Below, one piece after another: positions 501 through 58,141 of a stretch of 64,000 bases of DNA. The notes beneath the pieces are model-generated. The model was given only the letters and a program-made list of their open reading frames with translations. It was not told the DNA's origin and searched no databases. This DNA comes from Sphagnum compactum (Eukaryota). How positions within the stretch are numbered: the first letter of the stretch is position 1; every line of letters begins with the position of its first letter. Location: assembly GCA_965153455.1 (NCBI GenBank), contig OZ234493.1, positions 11,150,213-11,214,212 of the forward strand, in the 5' to 3' direction. A program made the position numbers and the translations under genes.

Positions 501-933
501 GCTTAACATTTGCATGTTATTAACTGACTCTAATAAACCAAGAAGCTTATGATTTGGAGATGGAAGACTGAGGTAGTTAGGTGCAATTTGAAACCAACAA
601 GCTCAATATCCTTGGCCAATCAATTGGCCAATCAGTAGTTTATTGCAGGCAGGAATGTAGCCATTTCTGATGTAGCAGAAACCCTTGAAAATGCTGCCAT
701 AGTCTCAAATTCCACTTAGTTTTGAAAATAACTCTGTACATAAGAGAAAAGAGTCAGTAGACCTAAGTGGTACAAATGGTAGAGACAGGGTTACTACTGA
801 AAGGCTCTGTGGCCACTTTTTCAGTGGTACCACATCTGACAACAGTGTTCACCTATGACAGTTTATATTACTGCTACACATGGTATGGAAAAACTGAAGT
901 TGATAAAGTGATTGACAGGACAGACTACTAGCA

Positions 934-3382
934 TCATCAATAGTCCATGCAAGAACAAACACCATCATTGAAGTGATGAAAGCAATTCACATCCCTCACC
1001 ATGATTGTTCTCCCAACTATTTTTGAAATGAACTTAGTGGAAATATGGCAATCTTCACAAACCTGCAGCTTCTCTTTTTCAGAGTGGAGTACCAGGTGCT
1101 GTGTTGAGGAGCCTGAATGCAATTGCCAGGTTCTCACTATGGTGGCACAAATGAGACACCTTTTCTTCTTCCTCTACATCATGTAGCACAATTGCAGTAC
1201 GTGGCACATACCCAGCATCATGCATGAGCCCTGACAATCTCTTCAGTTCTGCACGGATTTCAACCATCTGAGGGTGGTCTTGATCATCTACTACAAATGT
1301 ATGCACCTTGTTATCCACCACAATCCAGGTGCAACCTAGCTGCCTTTTCACGCCTCTTTCCTTTCTCTGCCATTCAACATCCTCACAGAGATGCCTGTTG
1401 CCAGAAGCAGCATAGATGTTTGCTAGCAGCACATAACCCACAGCATTTTCAGACTCCAATTCAATAACTTGCTTAGCAACACATTCTCGCATCTCCACAT
1501 TTCCATGAATACTGCAAGCACTGAGCAAAGCCATGCATGTAGCAAAATGTGGTTTACAGGGCATGCTCTTGATCATATTCTCAGCCTCCTGTGGATGACC
1601 AGCAAGGCCAAGAAGGTCGACCATGCAGGTGTAATGTTCCACTGTTGGAGAAATCATGTAAACTTCCTTCATTGAAGCATAAAAGCACATGCCTTCATGC
1701 ACCAAACCTGCATGGCTACAAGCTGACAGACAACAAACAAAAGTGATATCATCTGGCTGTACACCTTCTTCACACATCTGTTTAAAATATGTAAGAGCTT
1801 CCTTACCATGCCCATGCATGGCAAATCCTCCAAATATGGAGTTCCAAGAGACCACATCCCACAATGGCATCTCATTGAACTCTCTTGGCATCCTCCATGC
1901 TGCCACATTTTGCGTACATGTCAACTAAGCAATTCCCCACAAAGACATCTGAATCCCATCCACTTTGAATGATCTGCTTGTGAGCAAATCTGCCCTCTTC
2001 AAGTGCAACCAAGCTGGCACATGCATTCACCACCCCCACAAAAGTAAGAGAGTCTGACTGCACACCTTCCTGTTGCATTTGTCGAAACAGTTCCAGTGAC
2101 TTCTGCCCTTGCCCACATTTCACATGTCCCAATATCATGGAATTCCAAGTGACCACATTGCGTGATGGCATCTTGTTAAAATCTCTCCAAGCATCCTCCA
2201 TGCTGCCACATTTTGCATACAAGTCAATCAAGCTATTCCCCACAAACACATCCAAATCCCATCCACTTTGAATTATCTGCTAATGGGCACAATTGCCCTC
2301 TTCAAGTGCAACCAAGCTGGCACATGCATTTACCACCCCCACAAAAGTAACAGGGTCTAGCTGCACACCTTCCTAATGCATTTGTCGAAATAGTTCCAGT
2401 GCCCTCTGCTCACGTCCACATTTCATGTGTCCCATTATCATGGTGGTCCAAGTGACCACATCATTTGATTGCATATTGTTGAACACCCTCTGAGCATCCT
2501 CCATGCTGCCACATTTTGCATACATGTCAACCAAGCTACTGCCCACAAACACATCTGAATCCCATCCACTTTGAATGATCTGCTGGTGAGCACATCTGCT
2601 CTTCAAGTGCAACCAAGCTGGCACATGCATTCACCACCCCCACAAACGTAACAGAGTCTGGCTTCACACCTTCCTGTTGCATTTGTGAAAATAGTTCCAG
2701 TGCCTTTTGCCCTTGTCCACATTTCCCACGTCCCAATATCATGGCATTCCAAGTGACCACATCCCGTGACGGCATTTTGTTGAACACTCTCTGAGCTTCC
2801 TCCATGCTGCCACATTTGGCATACATATCTACGAGGCTACACCCCACAAAGGCATCACCCTCACAACCACTTTGAATTATCTGTTCATGAACCTGTCTGC
2901 CCTCTTCAAGTGCTCGTAAGCTAGCACATGCATTGAGCAGTGGAACGAAAGTGAACGTGTCAGGAGACATGCCTTTTTTTTGCATTTCTTGGAAAAGCGC
3001 AATCGTCTTCTCGTGTTGCCCAGCCTTACCGTTCCTTGCAAGCCTCGTATTCCACAAGAACCCGTCCAATTGCACAGTCCCTGGTGCCATGGCGGCCAGT
3101 TTTGAATCCACCCATGGGGGATTCCTTCGGTCCCCCATCCAGAGTGAATCCTGCGTCGTCTTATGCTTGAAATCCGGGTATTGTGCAGTCGCCTTCTCCG
3201 ACCTGCATTCCCACCACCGCGAAGGATCTGAAAATAATTGCTGCCAGAGTGTCTCGATTCTCTGGCCCGCTGCTGTTGGTCCACCCTTTCCACCCCAATT
3301 ACTTGCCACCGCTCTGCTGCCGCAAACTCACTACATGTCCTAACCGGCGCCACTCGACGGTGAGTCGATGGCGCACTGCCAT
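934..3382 (-). pseudogene. PLS-class PPR-E1-E2-DYW RNA-editing factor with N-terminal OSB-type PDF motif; pseudogene
   Basis: Joined from ORFs 3299-3625, 2536-3309, 2373-2630, 1872-2255, 1079-1924 and 937-1137. Order: Arg-rich transit-like leader (ATG 3382, MAVRHRLTVEWRRLGHVVSLRQQS), PDF motif, 4 P-L-S triplets, P2-L2-S2, E1, E2, PG-box (LGCTWIVVDNKVHTF), HSE..CEDCH zinc site, CSCMDY. Lesions: frameshifts near 3310, 2600, 1880 and 1072; stops TAG 2373-2375, TAG 2280-2282 and TGA 1079-1081; terminal Trp codon changed to TGA (937-939) just before a second TGA (934-936). Intronless. Confidence 0.93.
3097..3249 (-). other. PDF motif (OSB-family ssDNA-binding motif) within the PPR-DYW gene
   Basis: LWQQLFSDPSRWWECRSEKATAQYPDFKHKTTQDSLWMGDRRNPPWVDSKL matches the OSB PDF pattern LWxxFFxxPxxWWDNRxxKxNxxxPDFKHKxTGEALWL..PxWV. 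It is in the same ORF as the first PPR motifs. Confidence 0.88.
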
Positions 3383-3954
3383 CACCACGAAGATTTGACG
3401 AAGCAAGCGAATTGAGGGGCTTGGGATTCCCCGGTGCCCCAACAGCAGCACCATGTCACAACCACAAACAGGTTCAGCAGACTGGTTCAAGCACAGCTCA
3501 CCACAGCTTTCAATAAGACCCCACAATGGAGAGTCTTGCGCGCAAAGAAGTCGCATGAGATTAAAACTATAGCCCCCTTCGCACCAAATTGGAGAGCCTG
3601 ATAACACCATAGGCACTCGTAACAAACGGTGACGCGAAAGAAAGAATGAAGAGACAATTTATACGGGACACAAGGAATTTTCCACTCTGACGGAGTATCT
3701 TATGCCACTCTTAGCACACGCACATGAATGAAGAAGCACGGCAGACTGCCGCGCGAGAAGCAGATCTGCCCGCAATCTTCCACAAAACCTGGCAGGCAGA
3801 AAATCTGGACTTTCTGCTCGGCCGCATCCGGCAGACGTCTGCGTGCTCCTGGAGCTCCCCTTCCGGCCTGCCCAGGAACTGCGGCGCTCCGTTTTGCACT
3901 CTGCCCGAGTCTCTCACAAAGTTTAGAGCTTTGTGTGAGTTTATGTAGGGTTGG

Positions 3955-4245
3955 GTTGGGAACAAAAGGAAGTTGATGGGAAGTTAATGGGAACAAAAGG
4001 ATTTTGATAGGAACTTGATGGAAACAAAAGGAATTTGATGGGAACTTGATGAAAACAAAAGGATTTTGATGGGTTATTGATGGGAATGAGAGGAATTTGA
4101 TGAGAATTGTTTGGGAACTTGATGAGAACAGGATGAATTTAATGGGAATTGTTTGGAACTTGATGAGAACAAAAGGATTTTGATAGGTTATTAAAGGGAA
4201 CAAGAGGAATTTTATGGGAACTTTTTGGGAACTTGATAGGAAATC
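3955..4245. repeat. Degenerate short tandem array (gatgggaacttgatgagaacaaaagga-like units)
   Basis: Recurrent 'gatgggaac(tt)' and 'gaacaaaaggatttt' motifs; the overlapping ORF 3700-4203 translates to low-complexity sequence. Confidence 0.75.
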
Positions 4246-4661: not shown

Positions 4662-5162
4662 CCGTCTTGTGCGGTATTTGAATTTATGGACTACGTAATC
4701 AGCAAGAGTAGCCCGGGAAAAAAAAACCAGCCGTCTTGTGCGGTATTTGAATTTATGGACTATGTAACGGGTGAGAGCAGCCTGGTTACAGGAAAAAAAC
4801 CAGCCATCTTGTGCGGTATTTGAATTTATGGACTACGTAATCAGCAAGAGTAGCCCGGGAAAAAAAAAACAGCCGTCTTGTGCGGTATTTGAATTTATGG
4901 ACTTCGTAATCAGCAAGATTAGCCCAGGAAAAAAAAACCAGCCATGCCATCTTGTGCAGTATTTGAATTTATGGACTACGTAACGGGTGAGAGCAGCCCG
5001 GTTACAGGAAAAAAACCAGCTATCTTCTGCGGTATTTGAATTTATGGACTACATCACCAGCAAGAGCAGCCCAGCTACTCGAAGAAAAACCAGCTGTCTT
5101 GTGTGGTATTTGAATTTATGGACTATGTAACCAGCCAGAGCAGCCCGGTTACTGGAAAAAAA
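4662..5162. repeat. Tandem minisatellite, 7 units of about 69-74 bp
   Basis: Units start at 4662, 4731, 4804, 4873, 4947, 5020 and 5094; conserved core cttgtgcggtatttgaatttatggacta. Confidence 0.95.
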
Positions 5163-6909: not shown

Positions 6910-8300
6910 AATGTTAAACTTGGATTCCTTGCAGGTAGTCGTACACATGAAAATATTGATTGATGTTTTGGGTATTTGTCAAATAAGTTGAGAAAACAAA
7001 AGAACTACATTTCAGATTTAATACATTTCAGATTTAATGAAGGTTTTTATGATCTCACAAAAGTGACTTTTCATTCTGCAGTTGATTCAAAAGATTTTAG
7101 ATTTCAAAACCTAAGTCCTAGATTCTTTAAAAGATGATCTTGAAACTTGGTAAGGCATATTGATGGGCATATTTTTAGATTTTTTTGTTGATTTGTCCAA
7201 TTAGGCTATGATGCAATACAAAGTTTCATCTATAGATAGTGTTTGGAGTCCCTTAGATGGGCCTCTAATCAAATTGTGGAAAGTTAATCCCAATGGATCA
7301 CCAAAGCTTCCTACTAAAGTCCCAAGCCTTATTCCTTATCACCTAATTTGGGGCAATGATGTGTTTAGTCCATGAAAAGGGAAAAGTTTATTAGTGTTGG
7401 ACTATTCAAATATGTGGAATTCTAGAAGCAAGGCATTGAATAAAGTGCAACTTACACAAGGAAAAAGATTTTGTTTGTGGAATATTGGGAGGATACTTGT
7501 GCAAAGTTAATCCCAATGGATCACCAAAGCTTCCTACTAAAGTCCCAAGCCTTATTCCTTATCACCTAATTTGGGGCAATGATGTGTTTAGTCCATGAAA
7601 AGGGAAAAGTTTATTAGTGTTGGACTATTCAAATATGTGGAATTCTAGAAGCAAGGCATTGAATAAAGTGCAACTTACACAAGGAAAAGGATTTTGTTTG
7701 TGGAATATTGGGAGGATACTGTATTGCATTTGTCAAAATTGTTACTTCTTCAAAGTTTCACTCTTTTGGAGGGCTAGTGGCCTACAAACAATTGAAGGTT
7801 TTAATTATGCCAAGGCTTCATTGCCATTCATAGTGAAAGTTATTGATTTAAAAAACTTAGTCATACATCTTAATTGTGGACCCAAAAACTTAAAGACTAC
7901 TCCAACGTACATTTTGTTTAAAGATTTCAACATTGGGAAGTTTGTTTTCCATGAGGCCACATGATTTTGTCCTTGTGTGGATGAGAAGAACACAAAGTGA
8001 TGTCAAGGATGACCAAAATGAATTTTTCAAAATGTTAAAAGTTTAGTGGTGGAGATTCCAATGAAGAAAGGGTCAAACTTAGATGAACAACCCTTATTAA
8101 AATTACTGGAATGGCAAATGAAAATGCAATTTAGTAGATCCAAAATACTGGTTCGAAATTTTAGTTTTTTCTTTTCTTTTCTTACTTGAAAAAATACAAC
8201 AAACAAAAGTCACATCATTATTCCTGATAGTTGTGCTTTTCGAACTAAAGTGATTCTTGAAGCTCTTGAAGCTGCTAATGCATCAAGTAATTTGTGAAGT
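6910..8300 (+). mobile_element. Degenerate DDE transposase remnant (GHTHEDID-type; DUF7869/Sola1-like)
   Basis: Reads VKLGFLAGSRTHENID*CFGYLSNKLRKQKNYISDL at about 6913-7020, resembling the (V)GHTHEDID catalytic motif. Later fragments include WWRF..KKGSNLDEQ..YWNGK*KCNLVDP. Many stops and frameshifts. Confidence 0.5.
7274..7720. repeat. Near-perfect 223-bp tandem duplication
   Basis: 7274-7496 and 7497-7719 are almost identical (aaagttaatcccaatggatcacc...attgggaggatact). Confidence 0.95.
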
Positions 8301-32787: not shown

Positions 32788-33418
32788 CAAATGAAATAGT
32801 CCTAAATATTCAATATTTTTCCTTCAAAATATTTCTTGATTTGAAAGGAATAACTTTTGAAATTTTCAACATTCTTAAAAATATATAAAATTAGTGTTGA
32901 ATTGGCCAAGGTACTAGGGTATATGGTAGTGTGGGGCCACAGTGACCAGCACACCACCACTGGATGCCCCTTGTAACTCAGTTGTGAGTTAATATGTGGT
33001 TTCACGTTGGTAACCATTTATTTACGAAATAGGTCTCATATATAGGTAGACAGGTAGGAAAATAGGTAACTACCAGATAATTAGATGGTTTATACATAGG
33101 TCAGAAAATGGTTTCTTTGTCAAAAACAACCGAAAATTCGCTCCCGAAAAAAACACTGCTACCTATTCAAGTGGATGCAACCCGGGCCCAGGACAGGACG
33201 CCCACGGAAGTTGTCAATGCTGGAACTGGGAGCTTCCGAGCAGAGGCTCCTTATTGCAGGCAATATAAAAAAAGCACTGCATGCTTCTTTTTTTCCTTGT
33301 CTGCCATTTGGCTTGATCCATCTTCTTCTGGAGAACAAGGGAGAGTGAAGATTCACTGACACCTTTCATTCCTGGATCTCATAAGAAATCACAGTGCGAG
33401 AAACATTCTGTGCATGCT

Positions 33419-35525
33419 ATGGAGAACATTGTTGTGAGGTGGGCTCAGCTGATGATACAGCCGGCTCAATTGAAGATAGTTGCTGCCACAATAGCTGTTT
33501 TGATTTTTTTTCATCGTCTTTTCAAGCATTTTTTCCACCAGCACACAAAGTTGAAGAGACCACCGGGTCCATTCCCCTGGCCAGTGGTTGGAAACCTTCT
33601 GATGCTTGGCAAGCTTCCCCACCATGCTTTCTACAGCTTGTCGAAGAAGTATGGGGACATCATGGAGCTGAAGTTGGGATCTGTTCGCACAATTGTCGTC
33701 TCCTCACCAGAGATGGCAAAACAAGTGCTCAAGGTTCATGACTTGATATGTGCATCACGTCCTGAAACAATTGCAAGTAAGATCATATTTGAACAACGTG
33801 ATATTGGATGGGCACCTTATGGGGATCATTGGCGACACATGCGAAAGCTTAGCACGTTGGAGCTTTTGACTCTCAAAAGGCTCGAAGACTCTAGGAACAT
33901 CCGAGATGAGGAGTTTTCATGGTTGGTGCATGGGATCTTTGAACATTGTAAGGTAAATGTATTGTTTCACAAATTCAATTTTTGTTTTTTTTTTTCACTA
34001 CATTTCAAGTGTTGCATGAATATGATACCAAAGCTAGAGAGAGGATCCAAATTGATCAACATTATAATTGAAATAGTTGGATGCATCACCTTAAGTCTTA
34101 GTTTCAATCCTTCTTTTGGAACTAATATCTTCAAGTTTGGGCTTGACACTAGACTGATTGAATTCAAATGCATTCATGGAGTTTCAAAAATCTTATTAGG
34201 AGTTTGAACAATTTGCAGGAAGGAAACCCAGTGAACATGCGAACAAGCTTGTCTAGTACCTCCATGAATGTGATCTCACGCTTACTCTTCAAGAAAAGAT
34301 ATTTCAACACAATGCATAGTGATGAGGAATCTGAGGAGTTCAAGGATATTGTTATGAAGATCTTGAATATAAGTGGTGTCTTCAACATTAGTGATTATGT
34401 CCCATTCCTAAAGCCATTTGATCTCCAAGGTATTCAACTTGAATGCAACCAATTACTTTCGAGGGTACATCGATTTTTCAACAAAATTATACAAGAACAT
34501 CTAAACGAAAAAATGAAGGCAAATGAATCGAAAGACTTTGTAGATGTCATGCTCTCTCATCCTGGTGTAGATGGTGTTAAAGACAGGCTCGATGAGCTCA
34601 CAATCAAGGGAGTTGCCATGGTAAGTTGTTTTATGTTCTTATAACTCATCTATAGATTTCCCAAATTATTGGTTTTGAATTTGGTTAATGGTTGTGTTCA
34701 ATGATTTCAACAATTTGATTTGTGAGCTTCATTAATGAACACATCACTATGATCTTTGCATGATTTGTTTGCAGTAGGACTAGGTAATATTGCATGCATA
34801 ACAAGTTCTTTTTGCTTGAATTCAACAACCCACTAATGATGTTCATTGGCTAATTGTGCCACAATTGTGTGTAGGACATGTTTGTTGCAGGGACTGACAC
34901 AATTGCCACCACAGTGGAATGGGCCCTTGTGGAGCTCATAAGGCATCCAAATGTATTAAAAAAAGTTCAAGATGAATTGGATGATGTGGTTGGCCAAGAA
35001 CGGGTTGTAGATGAAAATGACATTCCTCAATTGAAATACCTACAAGCTGTATTGAAAGAAACATTTCGACTTCATCCTCCAGCTCCCCTAATGGTGCCAC
35101 ATGAAAGCAGAAAAGCTTTTGAAATAGGAGGTTACCACATACCTGCCAAAAGTCCCATTTATGTGAATGTATGGGCCGTTCATCGACATCCATCTGCTTA
35201 TGAAAATCCATTTGATTTCAATCCTGAAAGATTTGTTGAAAATTTGATTGATGTAAAAGGGATAGATTTCCAATTGTTACCATTTGGCTCTGGACGACGT
35301 ATGTGTCCAGGTTTGAATTATGGTCTCTTGATGGTGCAAATTCAATTGGCCAAGCTTCTTCATAGCTTCATGTGGACATTGCCAAAAGGACAGAATCCTC
35401 AAGATATTGATATGGGTGAGATATTTGGTGTCTCAATTCCCAAAAAAATTCCATTGCAAGTTGTGGCTAGTGTTAGGCTTCCCCTACACTTGTATGCATC
35501 TAAAAAACTTGATGCATTTATTTAA
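33419..35525 (+). CDS. Cytochrome P450, CYP71 clan (A-type), 528 aa
   Basis: Exons 33419-33952, 34219-34620 and 34875-35525 (GT-AG, phase 0, 1587 nt). N-terminal TM anchor, PPGPFPWPVVGNL, WxxxR (WRHMR), AGTDT I-helix, ETFR, PERF, PFGSGRRMCPG heme motif. Confidence 0.96.
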
Positions 35526-43599: not shown

Positions 43600-44070
43600 T
43601 TCTCGTAAAAAAGCGCTGCAGAAAGTCTTGAAACAGTCCTGTGAAGCGCTTTTCTCCCTTTCAGATGATCAGATTAGCGTACACACTAATCATGTTTAAG
43701 CTGATCAATTCACGCTAACCTGAATTAACGATCTTACTAATCACTGTTTAACTGAACATTACTCTTGAACAGACGGGCGTGCGTCGTCGGGCCACCCGAG
43801 AGTTGGCCTCACTGAACCCAGAGGAAAAGCGGGTCGACCACACGGCAAATCCAAATTCTCACACGTTTCGTGCAGCCCGGTTTCTTTTGAAAAGGATCAA
43901 AACCCTAACCCTAATTCTGAAACCCTAGCCCTAACCCTCCTCTTCCTGTACTTTGCATTTGGAAAAGCTTTCATGTTGTCCATTGTGTCGATCATGTCTG
44001 TTTGCTGGGCAGATAGAACCGAACCCAGGCCGACGTTTCGACAAGGATATGATCTCTTGGCAGCAGCGAA
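43600..44070. promoter_or_regulatory. Short bidirectional promoter region with telo-boxes
   Basis: About 0.5 kb between divergent ICME and monooxygenase genes; GC/CpG-richer patch at 43770-43880; AAACCCTAACCCTAA at 43900-43914 and aaaccctagccctaaccct at about 43921. Confidence 0.55.
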
Positions 44071-47000
44071 ATGGGTTTCAGATTGCAAGGATTAATGTTT
44101 CCTTGGAGACTACCATGTCTTCGCATTTTGCAGCATCTACAATTGCAGAGATTTGTAGCTTCGGAATCAGTTGCAAGATGCTCTTCGAAAGCGATGAGTA
44201 TGGAAGCAGTCCAGAGAAGTGATCCAGAGGAGGAGGAGGATGAGAAACTGGGGGTGTTGATAGTGGGAGCTGGCCCAGTTGGTCTCACTCTCTCCATTCT
44301 GCTCTCCAGTTATGGTAAGCTTCCCTGTGGCAGCAGATATGGCACACTCTCTCCCTTTCTCCATTATGCTCTCCAGTTATGGTGAGTCTCCCTCTGGCAG
44401 CAGATATGACTCTTTCTCCCCATTCTGCTCTCCAGTTATGGTAAGCTTACATATGACAGCAGATATGGCTCACTATCTCCATGCTGCTCTCTAGTTATGG
44501 TAAGCTTCCCTCTGGCAGCAGATATGGCTCTGTTCGTTGCCATTTTCCCTTCTTCTTGTGCCCTCCTCTTCCTCTGAATCCAGCATATGTGTTGTTCTTG
44601 TATTGTGGAATCTGTTGAATTCACCTGGTTTCCAGTAGCATGATTCTCTCTTCCAGACTGTCAGATGCTTCAAACCTAATGTCTAAGGGTAAGCTGGTAA
44701 ATGTAAGTTCTGATTTCTGGGTTCAAACTCATGCAAGAGGGATCGGAGAGGGTGGGAATTTTTCAGGCTTTTGTGCCTCAAGCTTGAGAGCAGATTCTAC
44801 TAGTTCCTTTTTGCTACAACTTGAATTGATGATTGTCTTGTGGATCTAAAGACTACAGAAGAAAGCTCTCTTCTATTGAGTATAGAAGCAGAAGATGACT
44901 TGATTTTACTATTGAATTTTGGTTTTAGTTTGCTGATTGCCAGTTGAGGGCTACTCATAATCTGCCATCAACCTCTTCTTATTGTCATTCAGACTTTTTG
45001 ATTGTCAGTATTGGATATTTTCTATTGCTGACTGCACAGCACATGGATCCTCCAACCTTGAGTGGGAAACTTTGGGCTAGGTGTGCGTTCTTTGGTGGTG
45101 GAGAGACGTTCAAAATTGTCGGACCATCCACAGGCGCACTTCCTTAATAATCGCACAATGGAGGTGAGGATGTTATGAAATGCTCATATAGGGTTTTGAA
45201 ACCAGCCCAAAATGCATGCTCATATCAAGGAAATTCAAAGTGTTTAATTCCCTTTGCAGATTTTCAGAAAGATGGAAGGGTTGTCAGAGGAGATAGAAAC
45301 AAAGCAACCACCTCTAGAACACTGGCGCAGGTTTGTGCACTGTACCACACTTGCTGGTCGTGTGCTTGGCACTGTGGACCATTTGCAACCTGAGGGTATG
45401 CTCCTGGCCATCCTCATCTTTCTATGTTTCTTTCTCTGTCAGTTTTGGGTTGATTGCCACAAGTCTATGCCAAGCAAGTTAGTGTACGACACACTCTCTC
45501 TGTCATTTGCAAAAGGCTTGCTCCTTGCAAACTGGGTAGGGTGGTGGCCATTGGGTTGTGGCATTCAACAGTCTTCTGTGTACTCTACGTTTGACTTTGA
45601 TCTGCATTGTGCCTATTTCTGACTCATGTTTCTATTACCTGAGTGAGGACCTGAATGTGAGGACTTTGTTTCTTCTAAATGGGTAAATGTTGGTTGAGAA
45701 CAATATTACTTGCTTGGGCATGTGCAGATGTACCTTCAGGAAGAAGTCCAACTTCTGTTGCCCATTTTTCTCAGCACCATCTTCTACCATTATTATTTGA
45801 AAGGGCCCAAAGGCTCGGCCGCAGATTAGAACCCAAAGCCTCTACTGTGAAGATAGCCTCATCAGTTCTTAATGCAGGACCAATTTTGATGGGCCATGAA
45901 TGTACATCAATCAAAAGCGGCTCCAATGGTGTCCTTGCAAGTATCTTTCCAACTCAGGTGTATGAGCCAATCAAGCCATTGACCAGTTGTTGCATCAATT
46001 GTTTTGAGACGCAACTGATTTTTTTGTTGGATACTTGGAGTCTATAGGTTTTCTGTAAGAAGCAGAGGGGAAAGCCTTTGTCTTCAGGTTCTGATCATCA
46101 GCAACTACCTCTTGTTCACTTGGCATTTTTCAATCCACCTGTTAGAGAACAGACGCATTGTCTCCTATTTTCCTCATTTGCTGTCATTTCCCTTCCAATT
46201 ACTTTTAGTAGTTTCCCAGTTTCAGAATGAAACCAATAGGGTGATAGATTTGTACCATGTTAAAAGCCTGCATTCTTTGTTCTGTTGTTTTTGCATTGGT
46301 GTTCTGCTTGAATCCAAGGGTCATCTTTGGAAAAGATTTTTTGTCATAGCATGTGCTTATACCGTCATATGCAAACTGATAGAGGATTTTGGGTCTAGGT
46401 GTCAGGCTGGGATTGGTCAGGGTCAAAAACTTGCATGTCAGTACTTGGTGGCAGCAGATGGAGCTGGAAGTTCTGTGAGAGAACTTGCAGGTGTGCAAAT
46501 GGAGGGTGATGAGAATTTGCAGAAGCTCATAAGTGTCCACTTTATGAGCAAGCAGTTAGGACAACACTTATTGGACTCAGTTCCAGGAATGTTGTATTTT
46601 GTTTTCAACCAAAGGGTGATTGCTGTCATTGTTGCCCACAATCTTGAGGCTGGTGAATTCATAGCTCAGGTTTCTTATCTGACGATGTCTTTGACTGGTT
46701 TCTGGATAAGGAGATTTGGGTATAAAGTTATTGAGCTTGAATCTTTGTCTCTAGAAACCTTCCACTTTTCTGTCAAATTTTAGAGCATATTGCAATCAGT
46801 GTCTCTTTATGCAGATGTGAGAGAAGTCTTTGATTATAAACATCCTAATCTTAAGGATCTTTCTATCTGCACAAGTATATGTAACTGAACTGGAATGGAC
46901 TTTTTTTGAACTTTGTACATTGCAGATTCCTTTTTATCCACCTCAGCAGCAGTTTGAAGAGTTCACTGAGGAGGTAATCTTATTTCTTGCCTCTTGTCAC

Positions 47001-49608
47001 TCTTACTATTCTGCTTCCTCCAACTTGTTTCAATGTCCGTTGAGGTTGTGTTTGGGTTTAGGTTTCAACATGGTGTTTTTTCTACATGTAGCAGTGATCT
47101 GTCAAGTATTGGACTTGACCTGGATTTTACTATTCAGGTCTGCAAAGGCATCATTTATGATGCAGCAGGGACAAGAGACATTGAAATTGAGGTCAAAACT
47201 ATTAAAAAATGGAGTATGCATGCTCAAGTGGCAGCCTCTTATTTTGACAAGTATGGCCGCATCATTCTTGTCGGTGATGCTGCTCACCGGTTTCCACCAG
47301 CAGGGGGCTTTGGTGATTACTTTTATCTCCATTCTTTGTTTGGGGCTCTGCTTATCTTCTCCAGCAGAGTTTTTGGGTTCGGATGGGTTGACTCGAAAGT
47401 GAAGCAGCTTGTCAACTTGAACATAAAAGTGTCTGCTGTGCTTGCTTTTCTTCAGCGCCAGTTCATCTGTTTTTGTCTGTTGTTGGTGTTTTTCATAGGG
47501 GTTTGGTATGGGTACTGGCAGGATTAAATACAGGTGTACAGGATGCCCATAATTTGGCATGGAAGCTAGCTGCTGTTCTCAAGGGCCATTGCCCAAGTGC
47601 CTTACTATTAACTTATGCCACTGAGCGTCGACCGGTGTGCACTGAAACTTTGATTTGAAGAACAGAGTTATTTATATATATATATATACATATACATACA
47701 ATGTTGCAATTTTTGCAATGGTCCCCAGAAGAATAGTGTACTGATGACTATTGATTGTGAGGATCATTGCTGCCCAGATTTACATAATTTGATGCACTGA
47801 AGCAGATAGAAGTGAAGCATATTTTGTTAGAGATGAGTCTTCAATCAGCAATTTTTTTCTGTCACAAAGATTTTATGATACTGACAAGTTGGGGTTATGC
47901 AGGTTGCAATAGCAAATACAGCCCTGAGCGTAGCAAATTTCAAAGCTGCCATGGCAGTTCCAGCTGCATTGGGCCTAGACCCTTCAGCTGCTAGGTCTGT
48001 TGAAACTGTTATATGGGCTCTGTCTGCTTGTTTCACATCATGTTCCAAGCGTGCGCTCTCATGGCTGGCTTTAGGTGTTTTTCTCAGTAGAAAGCAACTT
48101 AGCTCTGATAGCGCAGGCTTTCTTTTAAATGTGGTGACAGTTTTGTGATATGTCACTTCACATTGAATGCTGTAGTGAGTGTGAATCCCCATTGTGCAAT
48201 GTCATGGGCACTTGTAGCTAACAAGGTGTGTGTCTGTGATTCAACTGTTGGAGAATCATTTTGAGGAGGATTTTTTACTCTGTTTGCAGATTGGTACATA
48301 AAGTTGTCAACAGTGGTGTGGGGCTGTTGCTCCCGGAAAGATTCCAGGTCACACTTTTGGATGGCCTTTTTGCTATTGGCCGAGCCCAGGTGTCACCAGC
48401 TTTTCTTAGTAGCCTCAATCCCATTGGCTCAGCTCGGGTATTGGAAGTGCAACGGATATTACGAGAAGGGCAGAGTCTCCAGCTCCAGTTTCCTGCTGAA
48501 GATCTTGGGTTCAGGTTTGCACTAGCAATTATATCTGTCCAAAGAGAGTTCGAAGAGAATGTTACCAGTTCTGTTTGTTTCAGTGCTGCTTGATTAATTT
48601 GTCAAAATTGAGGGTGGTGTAGGTATTTGGAGGGAGCTTTGGTTCCAGAGGTGGAGGCACAACAACAAACCAACTCTCATCAGAATTTTCCTACAGGGAG
48701 GAGAAGGGAATATTTGCCATCAACTCAGCCTGGGGCACGGTTACCACACTTTCCCATCCACATGTTTTGTCTAAATCCTCCAGCAACCTCCAAGGTGTAC
48801 AAATTCTCCCCTTTGGAATCTTCATTGTTTCTCCCCTTGTTGTCTGGATAGTGATCAGCAATTCATAATGGGAGATCTAACAAGTTTTTACAAAGAAAGG
48901 GGGAGATATATATACACTCAGGAAAACCATAATTGTAGGGTTTTGGGTTTAGGGTACATTGTACCTGTCATTGGATGTTGACAGGTTCAAGAACCAAAAT
49001 CAGGATTTCCATTTTACTGCACATTCTGCAACTGTCCACAAATTTAGTTCAATATTTGGTGGCATCCCTCATGAGCTGTTCATGTAAAACAGGAGATTTG
49101 TTCAACTCTGGACCTTGTAAGCAGAGGTGGGAACAGAATGGAGTTTGTTCTTTTAGTTCAGAGTCACAGATCGGGTTGCTGTTGGGGGGATGCGGCTATT
49201 ACAGCAGGACAGGCTTTTGGAATCTGGGTAAAAGTTGTTTTTATCTGGCCATCAGGGTCATATGATGGTTTTCTTGGAAAATCCCATATCCATACAGAAT
49301 CTGCTGAGTTAGGCAATGAGCAAATGAGTCCTGACAAAGATATGTTTTCCAATGACAATGAAGCAACTGCTGTTTTTGAATGGAGCCAGAGAAACAAAGG
49401 CTGTGTTTTACATGCTGAAGAGGTGGGATCTGGTTGGCAGGACATCTTTGGCATCCCAGAAACTGGTGCTATTTTAGTTAGACCAGATGACCATGTTGCA
49501 TGGAGGTCAAAAGCAGAACCAAAAGCCTCTTCTATTCAAGAACTCTATTTAGCCTTTAGCAAAGTGCTGAAGAAACCCAATATTCAAGTTCCAAGATTTA
49601 TGCAGTAA
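44071..49608 (+). CDS. FAD-dependent monooxygenase (FAD_binding_3, phenol/aromatic hydroxylase type; At1g24340/EMB2421-like), 765 aa with probable organellar transit peptide
   Basis: 12 GT-AG exons: 44071-44314, 45081-45163, 45260-45395, 45728-45957, 46406-46669, 46926-46973, 47138-47312, 47522-47634, 47903-47994, 48290-48514, 48623-48794, 49093-49608 (2298 nt, phases consistent). Motifs: [72 protein letters not shown]. Confidence 0.94.
44288..44530 (+). repeat. Four tandem copies of the exon1/intron1 junction of the monooxygenase
   Basis: ctctccagttatg|gt(a/g)ag with GT at 44315, 44382, 44441 and 44500 (spacing 67, 59, 59). Confidence 0.93.
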
Positions 49609-56792: not shown

Positions 56793-57467
56793 TTAGCTTG
56801 GTGGAACATTGGAGATGAAAGTCTTCAACGAGGTTGTTGTGGTTTCAGAGTCAAGAGACGCTCCAGCAGGAGCTAGAGCGAATCCAATTCCATGTCTGGA
56901 GTTGGTCTTGAAGCCGGAGATTGCTATGACCGATAGCACCAGACCCACCAAAGGTATGGACTTCACAATGGAGGTGGTGATTCCAGGGTAGAGACAAGTA
57001 GTTATAGGAGGTGTCAAGAGCGAGACAACCACAAGAGCTGTGACGGAGATGGCAGCATTCACGAAATCGCTAAACTTGAGCGTGTATTTCTTCTTATCGT
57101 CGCTACTTAGGCCTGTGAACATGCAGCCCTTCACACCCGCGATGTTGGCAGTCTTGAAATTGGGATTCCACATTCCTCTGGTAGTCACGAATCCGTAGTA
57201 CACTGTGCCATTCTTGTCCTTGCAGCTGTCTGTGAAGGACGTGAAAAAACAAACGAGGCTGAGGACCGAGATGGTGACGGCGGTCAGCACTTTCTCCGTG
57301 CCATGACAGTCTCCATTGTTGGTTGCCAATGGTGCTAGCGCTTGAAGCAGCAGAAAAGTACCGGTAGGAAGCACATTCGCCAATTTGGTGAAAACATCTG
57401 CTGTCGACTCGCGAGATCTCACAAGCTTTACCACTTTGGTGACAATGAATCTCAACACTTTGCTCAT
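56793..57467 (-). CDS. DMP: DUF679 membrane protein (DMP family), 224 aa, intronless
   Basis: LANVLPTGTFL..APLATNNGDC, CFFTSFTDS..GTVYYGFVTTRGMW, YTLKFSDFVNA, CLYPG and SRHGIGF are DMP hallmark motifs. The first in-frame ATG is at 57467, with an in-frame TGA upstream. Confidence 0.92.
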   Translation of the reverse strand: MSKVLRFIVTKVVKLVRSRESTADVFTKLANVLPTGTFLLLQALAPLATNNGDCHGTEKVLTAVTISVLSLVCFFTSFTDSCKDKNGTVYYGFVTTRGMWNPNFKTANIAGVKGCMFTGLSSDDKKKYTLKFSDFVNAAISVTALVVVSLLTPPITTCLYPGITTSIVKSIPLVGLVLSVIAISGFKTNSRHGIGFALAPAGASLDSETTTTSLKTFISNVPPS

Positions 57468-58141
57468 CTCGACGGAAGGTGTCGAGGCCGCCGATTGACC
57501 ATCCACCACTGTTGTTGAAGCTTTTCAAGACAGCAGCAACTGTGCAAAATGATCAGGCCGAATTCTCAACTGTAGACCAGGACACCCAATATCTCCGACA
57601 GATCGAGGCTACTAGCTGGGTTCAATCACAATGACAAAAATACTCTCCTTTCGAAACCAACTGCAACAGTTTGTTCTTCGAGATTGTTTCTGGAGTCTCA
57701 TGAGAGCTGGAAACCTTACACCCAAAATCTCCGACAAATTGATACACTTATAGATTGCAATGAAAGCTGCAGATCGAGACGACTGGGGTTCAATCTTCAC
57801 AATTATAAAATAAAAAAACCTTTCTTCTTTTGAAATTACCATTTATTGCAGTGACATCATGTTGTTCGAGCTCATCAATTCACGTTTCTTGAGGCTTAAT
57901 ATTCTGAGAACGTGAGATTGATAATTTCTGGAGTCGAAGAACGTGATATTCTCCGGGGTGATCTGAGCTAGCTAGACTCACTCGAATCTATTTCTGTCAA
58001 GTAGGCGAAGGAAGGTCAAGCACGCTAGCTGCATCTAATCTTGTCAGATCTTTAGGGCTTCCAAAAGCGCAACATTAGTAAACTAGAATTGTAGTCCAGC
58101 GACCAAAAAAACCACGTTTTTGTATCTTGGAATCTCACCTC

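Follow-up and report, generated by a model that had tools for sequence, protein, structure and literature searches.

In plant organelles, site-specific C-to-U editing is carried out by pentatricopeptide repeat (PPR) proteins of the PPR-DYW type, which have also become the basis of designer RNA editors. Can such an editor also carry the single-stranded DNA (ssDNA) binding element of the OSB proteins? The question is raised by a 64,000-nucleotide stretch of Sphagnum compactum DNA (assembly GCA_965153455.1, contig OZ234493.1, positions 11,150,213 to 11,214,212 of the forward strand), which we refer to as the window. Positions 934-3454 of the window, on the minus strand, hold a decayed paralog in a family of PLS-class PPR-E1-E2-DYW proteins, which by family assignment are organellar C-to-U RNA editing factors. 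An initial annotation, made from the letters and open reading frames (ORFs) of the window, had recognized a PDF motif of OSB type ahead of the PPR tract. In the literature searched, we found no description of such an architecture, in which a PPR-DYW editor bears a PDF motif of OSB type at its N-terminus.

The PDF motif is an ssDNA-binding element of about 50 residues in OSB proteins (PMC6963530, PMC4166229, PMC6451138; papers are cited here for the parts available to us). This binding has been reported for OSB1 and OSB2 only, and the PPR-borne copies are binders by prediction from their sequence. The segment in question, LWQQLFSDPSRWWECRSEKATAQYPDFKHKTTQDSLWM..NPPWV, lies at window 3070-3255 on the minus strand. 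It spans 62 codons, including a PPR-specific tail (AAMAPGTVQ), and forms residues 19-80 of a 257-codon ORF (3309..2536) that holds the PDF motif together with the first five PPR motifs.

Identity of the N-terminal segment

Pfam has no model for the PDF motif, and residues 1-83 of the 257-residue ORF gave sub-threshold noise only (BA_2335-like, DED). Therefore, we tested the segment both forward and in reverse. In the forward direction, the N-terminal 95 residues were common to 67 longer proteins (E ≤ 0.01), from which we aligned 17 PPR-borne modules with 19 invariant columns. When a profile of this alignment was compared with 1.84 billion representative proteins, 1158 were matched at E ≤ 1e-3, 479 at ≤ 1e-10, and 62 at ≤ 1e-30. 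Of the 150 matches listed among the 1158, many carried 2-13 tandem PDF copies near the C-terminus of a protein of 300-500 residues. Pfam families were sought in 147 of these matches: SSB (PF00436) was present in 21, PPR families were present in 11, and most had no family. Named matches included ‘protein OSB2, chloroplastic-like’ from Asparagus (E 9e-41, three copies), ‘Protein OSB3’ from Quillaja and Morus, and ‘Primosome PriB/single-strand DNA-binding’ from an Arabidopsis hybrid.

In the reverse direction, a hidden Markov model (HMM) was built from 49 PDF copies belonging to 22 OSB-type proteins. Its rows were placed by hmmalign on the PPR-derived profile, such that the columns were guided by that profile and the residues were not. 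Among the 1139 six-frame ORFs of the window with at least 30 residues, this OSB-only model matched a single one, at 75.9 bits (E 1.1e-22) and over model positions 1-55 of 56. The assignment to the OSB-type PDF motif thus passed the profile check that the initial annotation itself had proposed. In a BLASTP comparison with the OSB2-like protein P0097, 53 residues of the segment aligned at 47% identity (E 5e-15); the other two repeats of that protein matched too.

The consensus of OSB copies (lW..lf.nP..WwDnR..K.npk.PDFkhK.tg.aLWl.....P.WV) and that of PPR copies (E.lW..fFsDPSqWwD.R.eK.n.ryPDFKHK.t..aLWl....nPpWV) coincided one-to-one in their columns across 49 OSB and 31 PPR copies. Conserved in both settings were W, F, P, W, D, R, K, PDFKHK, LW, and P-WV, and the PDFKHK signature is present in the window copy. 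The tail AAMAPGTVQ was conserved in PPR copies and rarely reached by OSB matches. Judged by these alignments and profiles, the PPR-borne module is homologous to the PDF motifs of OSB proteins.

Other searches contributed less. A search of a limited word index with the PDF region returned three candidates, two of them short PPR fragments and none an OSB protein, and the forward profile had no matches by sequence in the PDB at E ≤ 1. The best ESM Atlas score (0.83, phage gp49 clusters) was below the usable level and was dropped. In a tree of 79 PDF copies over 56 columns, 50 of the 76 inner branches were without support and the PPR label required three changes, which is compatible with a single origin of the PPR fusion and likewise with several.

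Two groups of matches stood apart. A Riccia fluitans protein consisting of SSB and one PDF motif (P0210) came near the PPR-borne type (FFADPSQWWD..NPPWVAAQLAA), a likeness in sequence hinting that the PPR module was derived from a bryophyte-type OSB. Proteins P0070-P0076 are nearly all PDF repeats, with 13 copies in a 1160-residue protein of Kingdonia uniflora and 6-11 in five others. Pfam gave no credible family in this group, and the two matches in P0073 were without an individually significant stretch.

Intact members and their distribution

The window copy is broken, and the initial annotation had rested its case on intact paralogs, which do exist. Three loci from metagenome contigs (L004 and L005, 872 codons each; L053, 875 codons) contained an uninterrupted ORF running from an upstream methionine through the PDF motif to the DYW domain. 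Because these are single ORFs in raw DNA, the fusion is not an artefact of gene models. We then considered 124 proteins in which a PDF match was combined with two or more PPR signatures. All PDF motifs were N-terminal in 123 of them; the exception, P0271, had two separated PDF blocks and looks like two merged genes. All hallmarks of the DYW domain (HxE, CxDCH, and an end in ..YW) were present in 34 of the 124. Hence, the claim that the PDF motif lies in frame with a PLS-PPR-E-DYW protein was upheld, both by the ORF shared in the window and by intact PDF-to-DYW ORFs in relatives.

The species named for proteins with both PDF and PPR motifs were seven of Sphagnum, a leafy liverwort (Calypogeia fissa), a lycophyte (Diphasiastrum complanatum), and a fern (Adiantum capillus-veneris); of 392 matches, the 120 listed included about 35 locus tags of Diphasiastrum. 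No seed-plant protein of this kind occurred among the matches listed (150 of 1158 and 120 of 392). The closest intact protein, P0002, which corresponds to the L005 ORF, shares its 90% identity cluster with a Sphagnum magellanicum protein. Each Sphagnum and Calypogeia protein had one PDF motif, and lycophyte and fern members mostly had two or three. Among 40 further proteins, mostly from Diphasiastrum, 25 had two PDF motifs and six had three.

Many locus tags of Diphasiastrum lie close to one another (for instance 16G069400/16G069500, 12G080900/12G081100, and 06G018500/06G018700, among P0265-P0294 and others), which suggests that its PDF-PPR genes lie in tandem clusters. A further protein of 1371 residues from a Logan assembly (P0084) had three OSB-like PDF motifs (nP..WwDnR type) before a long PPR tract. 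Pfam detected no E or DYW family in P0084, and its PDF motifs grouped with OSB copies in the poorly supported tree. This protein may stem from a separate fusion event or from an assembly error.

Selection and conservation

To quantify selection on the PDF motif, we compared its 62 codons among 13 lesion-free, non-identical loci using the Nei-Gojobori method. The median dN/dS was 0.147 across the 67 pairs with dS > 0.03, the pooled pN/pS was 0.24, and six disjoint pairs ranged from 0.05 to 0.28. The PDF motif is under purifying selection in these loci, the outcome of the dN/dS comparison that the initial annotation had called for. When the dead window copy was compared with its five nearest relatives, the ratio was 0.66-1.10, albeit on 3-10 non-synonymous and 1-3.5 synonymous differences only. 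This is as expected of a pseudogene.

These results bear on whether the motif is a chance likeness, a one-off dead chimera, or a fusion made by gene models. The window copy is indeed a pseudogene, and evident model fusions do exist, such as a kinesin with a PDF motif (P0104) or P0271. Against this stand the E-value of the OSB-only profile, the unbroken PDF-to-DYW ORFs, the low dN/dS of about 0.15, and the dozens of loci with this architecture, spread over four or more plant lineages. We regard this explanation as already refuted, its remaining probability being negligible.

Conservation across lineages was measured in 15 pairs drawn from six moss, liverwort, and lycophyte proteins. Identity was 58-82% in the PDF motif, 65-84% in the DYW domain, 44-74% in the first PLS triplet, and 13-29% in the leader. 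The PDF motif is therefore about as conserved across lineages as the DYW deaminase domain. Within the set comprising P0037, P0051, P0052, and P0003, Sphagnum tenellum and Diphasiastrum were 82% identical in the PDF motif, 74% in the first PLS triplet, and 81% in the DYW domain. Moss, liverwort, and lycophyte members are thus unusually alike for their age, which may reflect consensus-like repeats or another cause.

Relation to known systems

The searched literature held no description tying the PDF motif or OSB proteins to DYW or PPR proteins; supplements were outside its scope, and an earlier mention is possible. Nor did the strings PDFKHK and WWDNR occur there in a relevant context. A replication review that mentions both OSB and pentatricopeptide proteins concerns OSB proteins alone in those of its PDF passages available to us (PMC6963530), and a 2026 survey of OSB evolution mentions PPR zero times. 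The methods of an OSB survey require an OB-fold in addition to the PDF motif (PMC13393729, in part), and surveys of that design would miss PDF-PPR genes. The initial annotation had not known the architecture as a described class, and our search agrees in that no account was found.

With OSB proteins (OSB1-4 of Arabidopsis and their homologues) the PPR-borne motif shares the columns W..lf..P..WWD.R..K....PDFKHK....LW.....P.WV, and tandem repeats of the motif occur in both settings. OSB proteins have a central OB-fold or SSB-like domain followed by C-terminal PDF motifs, whereas here the motif is N-terminal to a PPR-E-DYW body without SSB. PPR-borne copies also differ in adding the tail AAMAPGTVQ and in preferring SDPSQ where OSB copies show nP...

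The remainder of the protein resembles PLS-class editors, such as a synthetic consensus PPR-DYW protein (PDB 9kfx) and the DYW editors of Physcomitrium, in its P1-L1-S1 triplets, P2-L2-S2, E1, and E2 motifs, and DYW domain with HxE and CxDCH. The model of the 257-residue ORF matched 9kfx_A with a Z-score of 18.4 at 48% identity, but the match began at model residue 81 and left the PDF part uncovered. According to the parts available to us of a review of Physcomitrium PPR proteins, extra domains there are RRM, SMR, NYN, and LAGLIDADG, and described PLS-DYW members, unlike those here, carry a presequence (transit peptide) only before their first motif (PMC9459714).

Partial precedents exist for an accessory binder. 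Maize PPR4 and its orthologues, which are P-class proteins, have an RNA recognition motif (RRM) as a single-strand binder N-terminal to the PPR tract (PMC9459714). They differ in having an RRM rather than a PDF motif, in belonging to the P rather than the PLS-DYW class, and in acting in splicing rather than editing. In seed plants, the MORF/RIP editing cofactors enhance the binding of PLS-type PPR tracts to RNA (PMC13324415, PMC9459714), a possible functional analogy, although MORFs are separate proteins of unrelated sequence that bind L motifs.

Possible role of the PDF motif

What might the PDF motif do in an intact editor? The reading we favor, at about even odds, is a built-in clamp for single-stranded nucleic acid, positioned 5′ of the PPR footprint. 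PPR tracts recognize the RNA that precedes the edited C, and affinity depends chiefly on their N-terminal motifs and on the 5′ part of the target (PMC13324415). The PDF motif, which ends some three residues ahead of the first PPR helix, would serve as a largely sequence-independent single-strand clamp. Since it lies beside the first PPR motif and the N-terminal PPR motifs lie on the 5′ side of the RNA, it would meet the RNA just 5′ of the footprint. Such a contact could raise affinity or on-rate, help capture the target, or hold the target single-stranded, while the DYW domain would deaminate the C lying 3′ of the footprint. By analogy, the motif may be a helper acting in cis, comparable to what the RRM does at the N-terminus of maize PPR4 or to MORF/RIP proteins acting in trans in seed plants; the lineages studied here are not known to have MORF/RIP proteins. 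The initial annotation had put forward an accessory binder of this kind as one possibility, next to an ssDNA tether for co-transcriptional editing and a guided ssDNA deaminase.

Several observations weigh against a clamp on RNA. OSB PDF motifs are reported to bind ssDNA (PMC4166229, PMC6963530, PMC6451138), and OSB1 and OSB2 prefer ssDNA over double-stranded DNA or RNA (PMC4166229). This preference favors the main rival, namely that the motif keeps an OSB-like liking for ssDNA and tethers the editor to organellar ssDNA, making editing co-transcriptional or spatially confined. The sites envisaged for such a tether are the nucleoid, the transcription bubble, R-loops, and replication intermediates. 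The OSB-conserved columns are kept in PPR-borne copies, as a tether would have it, but the near-absent linker between the PDF motif and the first PPR motif better fits binding to the same strand than to a separate DNA strand. The two or three tandem PDF motifs of the lycophyte are compatible with clamp and tether alike. On balance, we judge the tether somewhat unlikely.

Structure models raised another difficulty. Using the 257-residue ORF and 40 homologues, AlphaFold2 (AF2) gave a model with a mean predicted local distance difference test score (pLDDT) of 86.1, and the PDF part (residues 11-80), with flanking PPR motifs present, scored 81-95. The model has a helix at 13-27, short strands at WWE (32-34) and FKH (47-49), a helix at 67-73, and the first PPR helix from 83. 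The PDF motif alone, modeled from 17 rows, reached a mean pLDDT of 59.5; it came out all-helical, unlike in the larger model, and was not good enough to be used in a fold search. The two runs differed in alignment depth (41 versus 17 rows), and their pictures disagree; therefore, neither fixes the fold of the PDF motif. A fold search with the larger model found the PPR part only, from residue ~81, and is silent on the PDF fold. Its best match was the synthetic PPR-DYW protein 9kfx_A (root-mean-square deviation 3.3, 163 aligned residues, model residues 81-257).

Taken at face value, the contrast between the two models could mean that the PDF motif packs on the PPR array as a cap rather than acting as a free binder. 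The motif would then be mainly structural, an N-terminal cap or an element for protein-protein contact or oligomerization, with little nucleic-acid contact. Confident modeling of the motif solely beside PPR motifs is consistent with this, as is the conserved, PPR-specific tail linking it to the first motif. However, the aromatic and basic columns of ssDNA-binding OSB motifs are invariant in PPR copies, the two models had alignments of unequal depth, and the multi-PDF arrays of the lycophyte are hard to read as a cap. Hence, we think a mainly structural or interaction role quite unlikely.

The state of the family and its expression also count against a working clamp. A scan of metagenome contigs yielded at least 600 pattern matches, of which 504 were confirmed and the best 80 (L001-L080) were tiled by tblastn with P0003. 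At least one stop or frame change was present in 61 of these 80 loci, and 31 had three or more stops within the alignment. Many of the 19 lesion-free loci were ended by the contig edge, and four of the 19 reached the DYW end. Several loci represent one gene from different samples, and single lesions may be introns or assembly errors. Thus, much of the family may be decaying, or part of the lesions may be introns or assembly errors. As noted above, the full set of DYW hallmarks was confined to 34 of 124 proteins. Expression of PDF-bearing paralogs is weakly indicated: RNA libraries contain contigs differing by 3-7% from the PDF-coding part, raw polyA reads covered this part at a depth of about 1, and no sequencing run contained more than 0.29 of the sampled words. 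Among 752 raw polyA RNA reads at 90% likeness, none was at least 99% alike and 78% continued into unlike sequence; most of these reads come from relatives of the window locus.

A more radical proposal is that intact members are PPR-guided deaminases of ssDNA and not of RNA. The motif binds ssDNA in OSB proteins (PMC6963530, PMC4166229, PMC6451138), and the title of PDB entry 5orq describes a designed PPR protein crystallized on ssDNA. On the other side, the P2-L2-S2-E1-E2-DYW arrangement is of the canonical RNA-editor type, with 48-49% identity to the synthetic RNA-editing protein 9kfx. Nothing in our data points to a DNA substrate, and deamination of organellar DNA would be mutagenic. We consider a DNA deaminase very unlikely. 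Nor is it probable that, more broadly, PDF-PPR-DYW proteins join an organellar ssDNA binder to a programmable deaminase at the DNA-RNA interface, whether they hold on to the displaced DNA strand and edit nascent RNA at transcription bubbles or R-loops, or deaminate ssDNA itself; we rate this as unlikely. If it were true, the motif would be a portable helper that makes PLS-type editors independent of cofactors and might be transferred to designer PPR editors.

Returning to the clamp, dozens of genes place a conserved and selected PDF motif, a single-strand binder in OSB proteins, at that end of the PPR tract on which target affinity chiefly depends. The architecture may point to an unrecognized aid to target capture in early-diverging land plants. 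In any case, the PDF motif is not exclusive to the genome-maintenance proteins of the OSB type. PPR annotation that scores PPR, E, and DYW motifs only probably misses it, and the motif could be tried as an addition to engineered PPR editors.

Layout and decay of the window copy

A six-frame reading of window 801-3500 resolved one minus-strand gene in five frame pieces. Its leader (3328..3454; frame-1 translation MVLLLGHRGIPSPSIRLLRQIFVVMAVRHRLTVEWRRLGHVVS) starts at an ATG at 3454 or 3382 and is transit-like by composition only. Residues 15-77 of P0001 matched 3454..3266 at 65%. The initial annotation had placed leader, PDF motif, and PPR tract in one uninterrupted ORF. This proved right for the PDF motif and five PPR motifs, while the leader is shifted out of that frame by a 1-bp insertion near 3326.

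The PDF motif is followed after about three residues by FSWN, where the first PPR motif begins. The PLS array (1544..3060) comprises 15 motifs in the order (P1-L1-S1)x4 and P2-L2-S2, read directly from the spliced frames, and Pfam detected its families (PPR, PPR_1, PPR_2, and PPR_3) in four of the five pieces. The E1 and E2 motifs follow at 1340..1543, both in the fourth piece (E_motif, E 2.4e-12; Eplus_motif, E 0.0045). This agrees with the 15 PLS motifs and E1/E2 described in the initial annotation. The DYW deaminase domain (937..1339) extends across the fourth and fifth pieces (DYW_deaminase, E 4.7e-10 and 6.8e-16), and the original TGA stop codon is at 934..936. A PG-type DYW domain with HSE and CEDCH had been proposed. 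The zinc-binding signature is present, with HSE inside 1115-1144 and CEDCH at 1045-1059, but the PG box reads LG in the window copy (QLGCTW) and PG in the intact relative P0002. Neither SSB (PF00436) nor another OB-fold family was found by Pfam in the five pieces at E ≤ 1.

The PLS triplets are visible in the DNA as a 303-bp period at window 1836-2934 (3.6 copies, 83% match), and relatives vary in length from 564 to 1253 residues. Together these suggest gain and loss of whole triplets via unequal exchange. Searching the window by tblastn with intact relatives spanned 3454..940, with 85-89% identity in the best-matching segments, and revealed no second copy of the gene in the window.

We aligned the window copy to the intact 872-codon ORF of L005 using MAFFT, resulting in 91.5% DNA identity (2365 of 2586 aligned columns). 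Relative to L005, there is a frameshift of +1 bp at 3322..3328 (near 3326), where contigs of relatives also have indels, and there are frameshifts of -2 bp near 2599 and 1880 in the PLS array and near 1078 in the DYW domain. Independently of this alignment, contigs of relatives contain the missing bases at 1072, 1878, 2598, and 3322/3323. Two internal TAG stops interrupt the PLS array at 2373-2375 and 2280-2282. The terminal tryptophan codon (937-939) is now TGA, whereas all aligned reads of relatives have TGG (T>C at 937). Hence, an intact frame ending in DYW is found in L004, L005, and L053 and is lost at the window locus through four frameshifts, two TAG stops, and the terminal TGG>TGA change. 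The window copy is unable to make a functional protein, just as the initial annotation had called it dead.

The same broken gene was seen elsewhere. Four metagenomic loci (L001-L003 and L006) were 91-94% identical to window 701-3700, which covers the gene and both flanks, and are likewise broken. These loci therefore form a pseudogene lineage with the window copy in several related genomes. The change of WWD to WWE in the PDF motif is common to the window and L001-L003.

Surroundings of the locus

The rest of the window resembles ordinary plant nuclear DNA. Its ORFs (33317-35522, plus strand; 44053-49605, plus strand; 56796-57524, minus strand) include three or more exon-like ones of a cytochrome P450 gene, several of an FAD-dependent aromatic-ring hydroxylase-like gene, and one of DUF679 (DMP-like) type. 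Upstream of the pseudogene are tandem arrays at 3957-4184, 4662-5148, and 7274-7720, consisting of 31/41-bp units, a 69/216-bp array (6.8 or 2.2 copies), and a 223-bp unit present twice at 99% match. The GC content falls to 17-23% in parts of the region from 18 to 32 kb.

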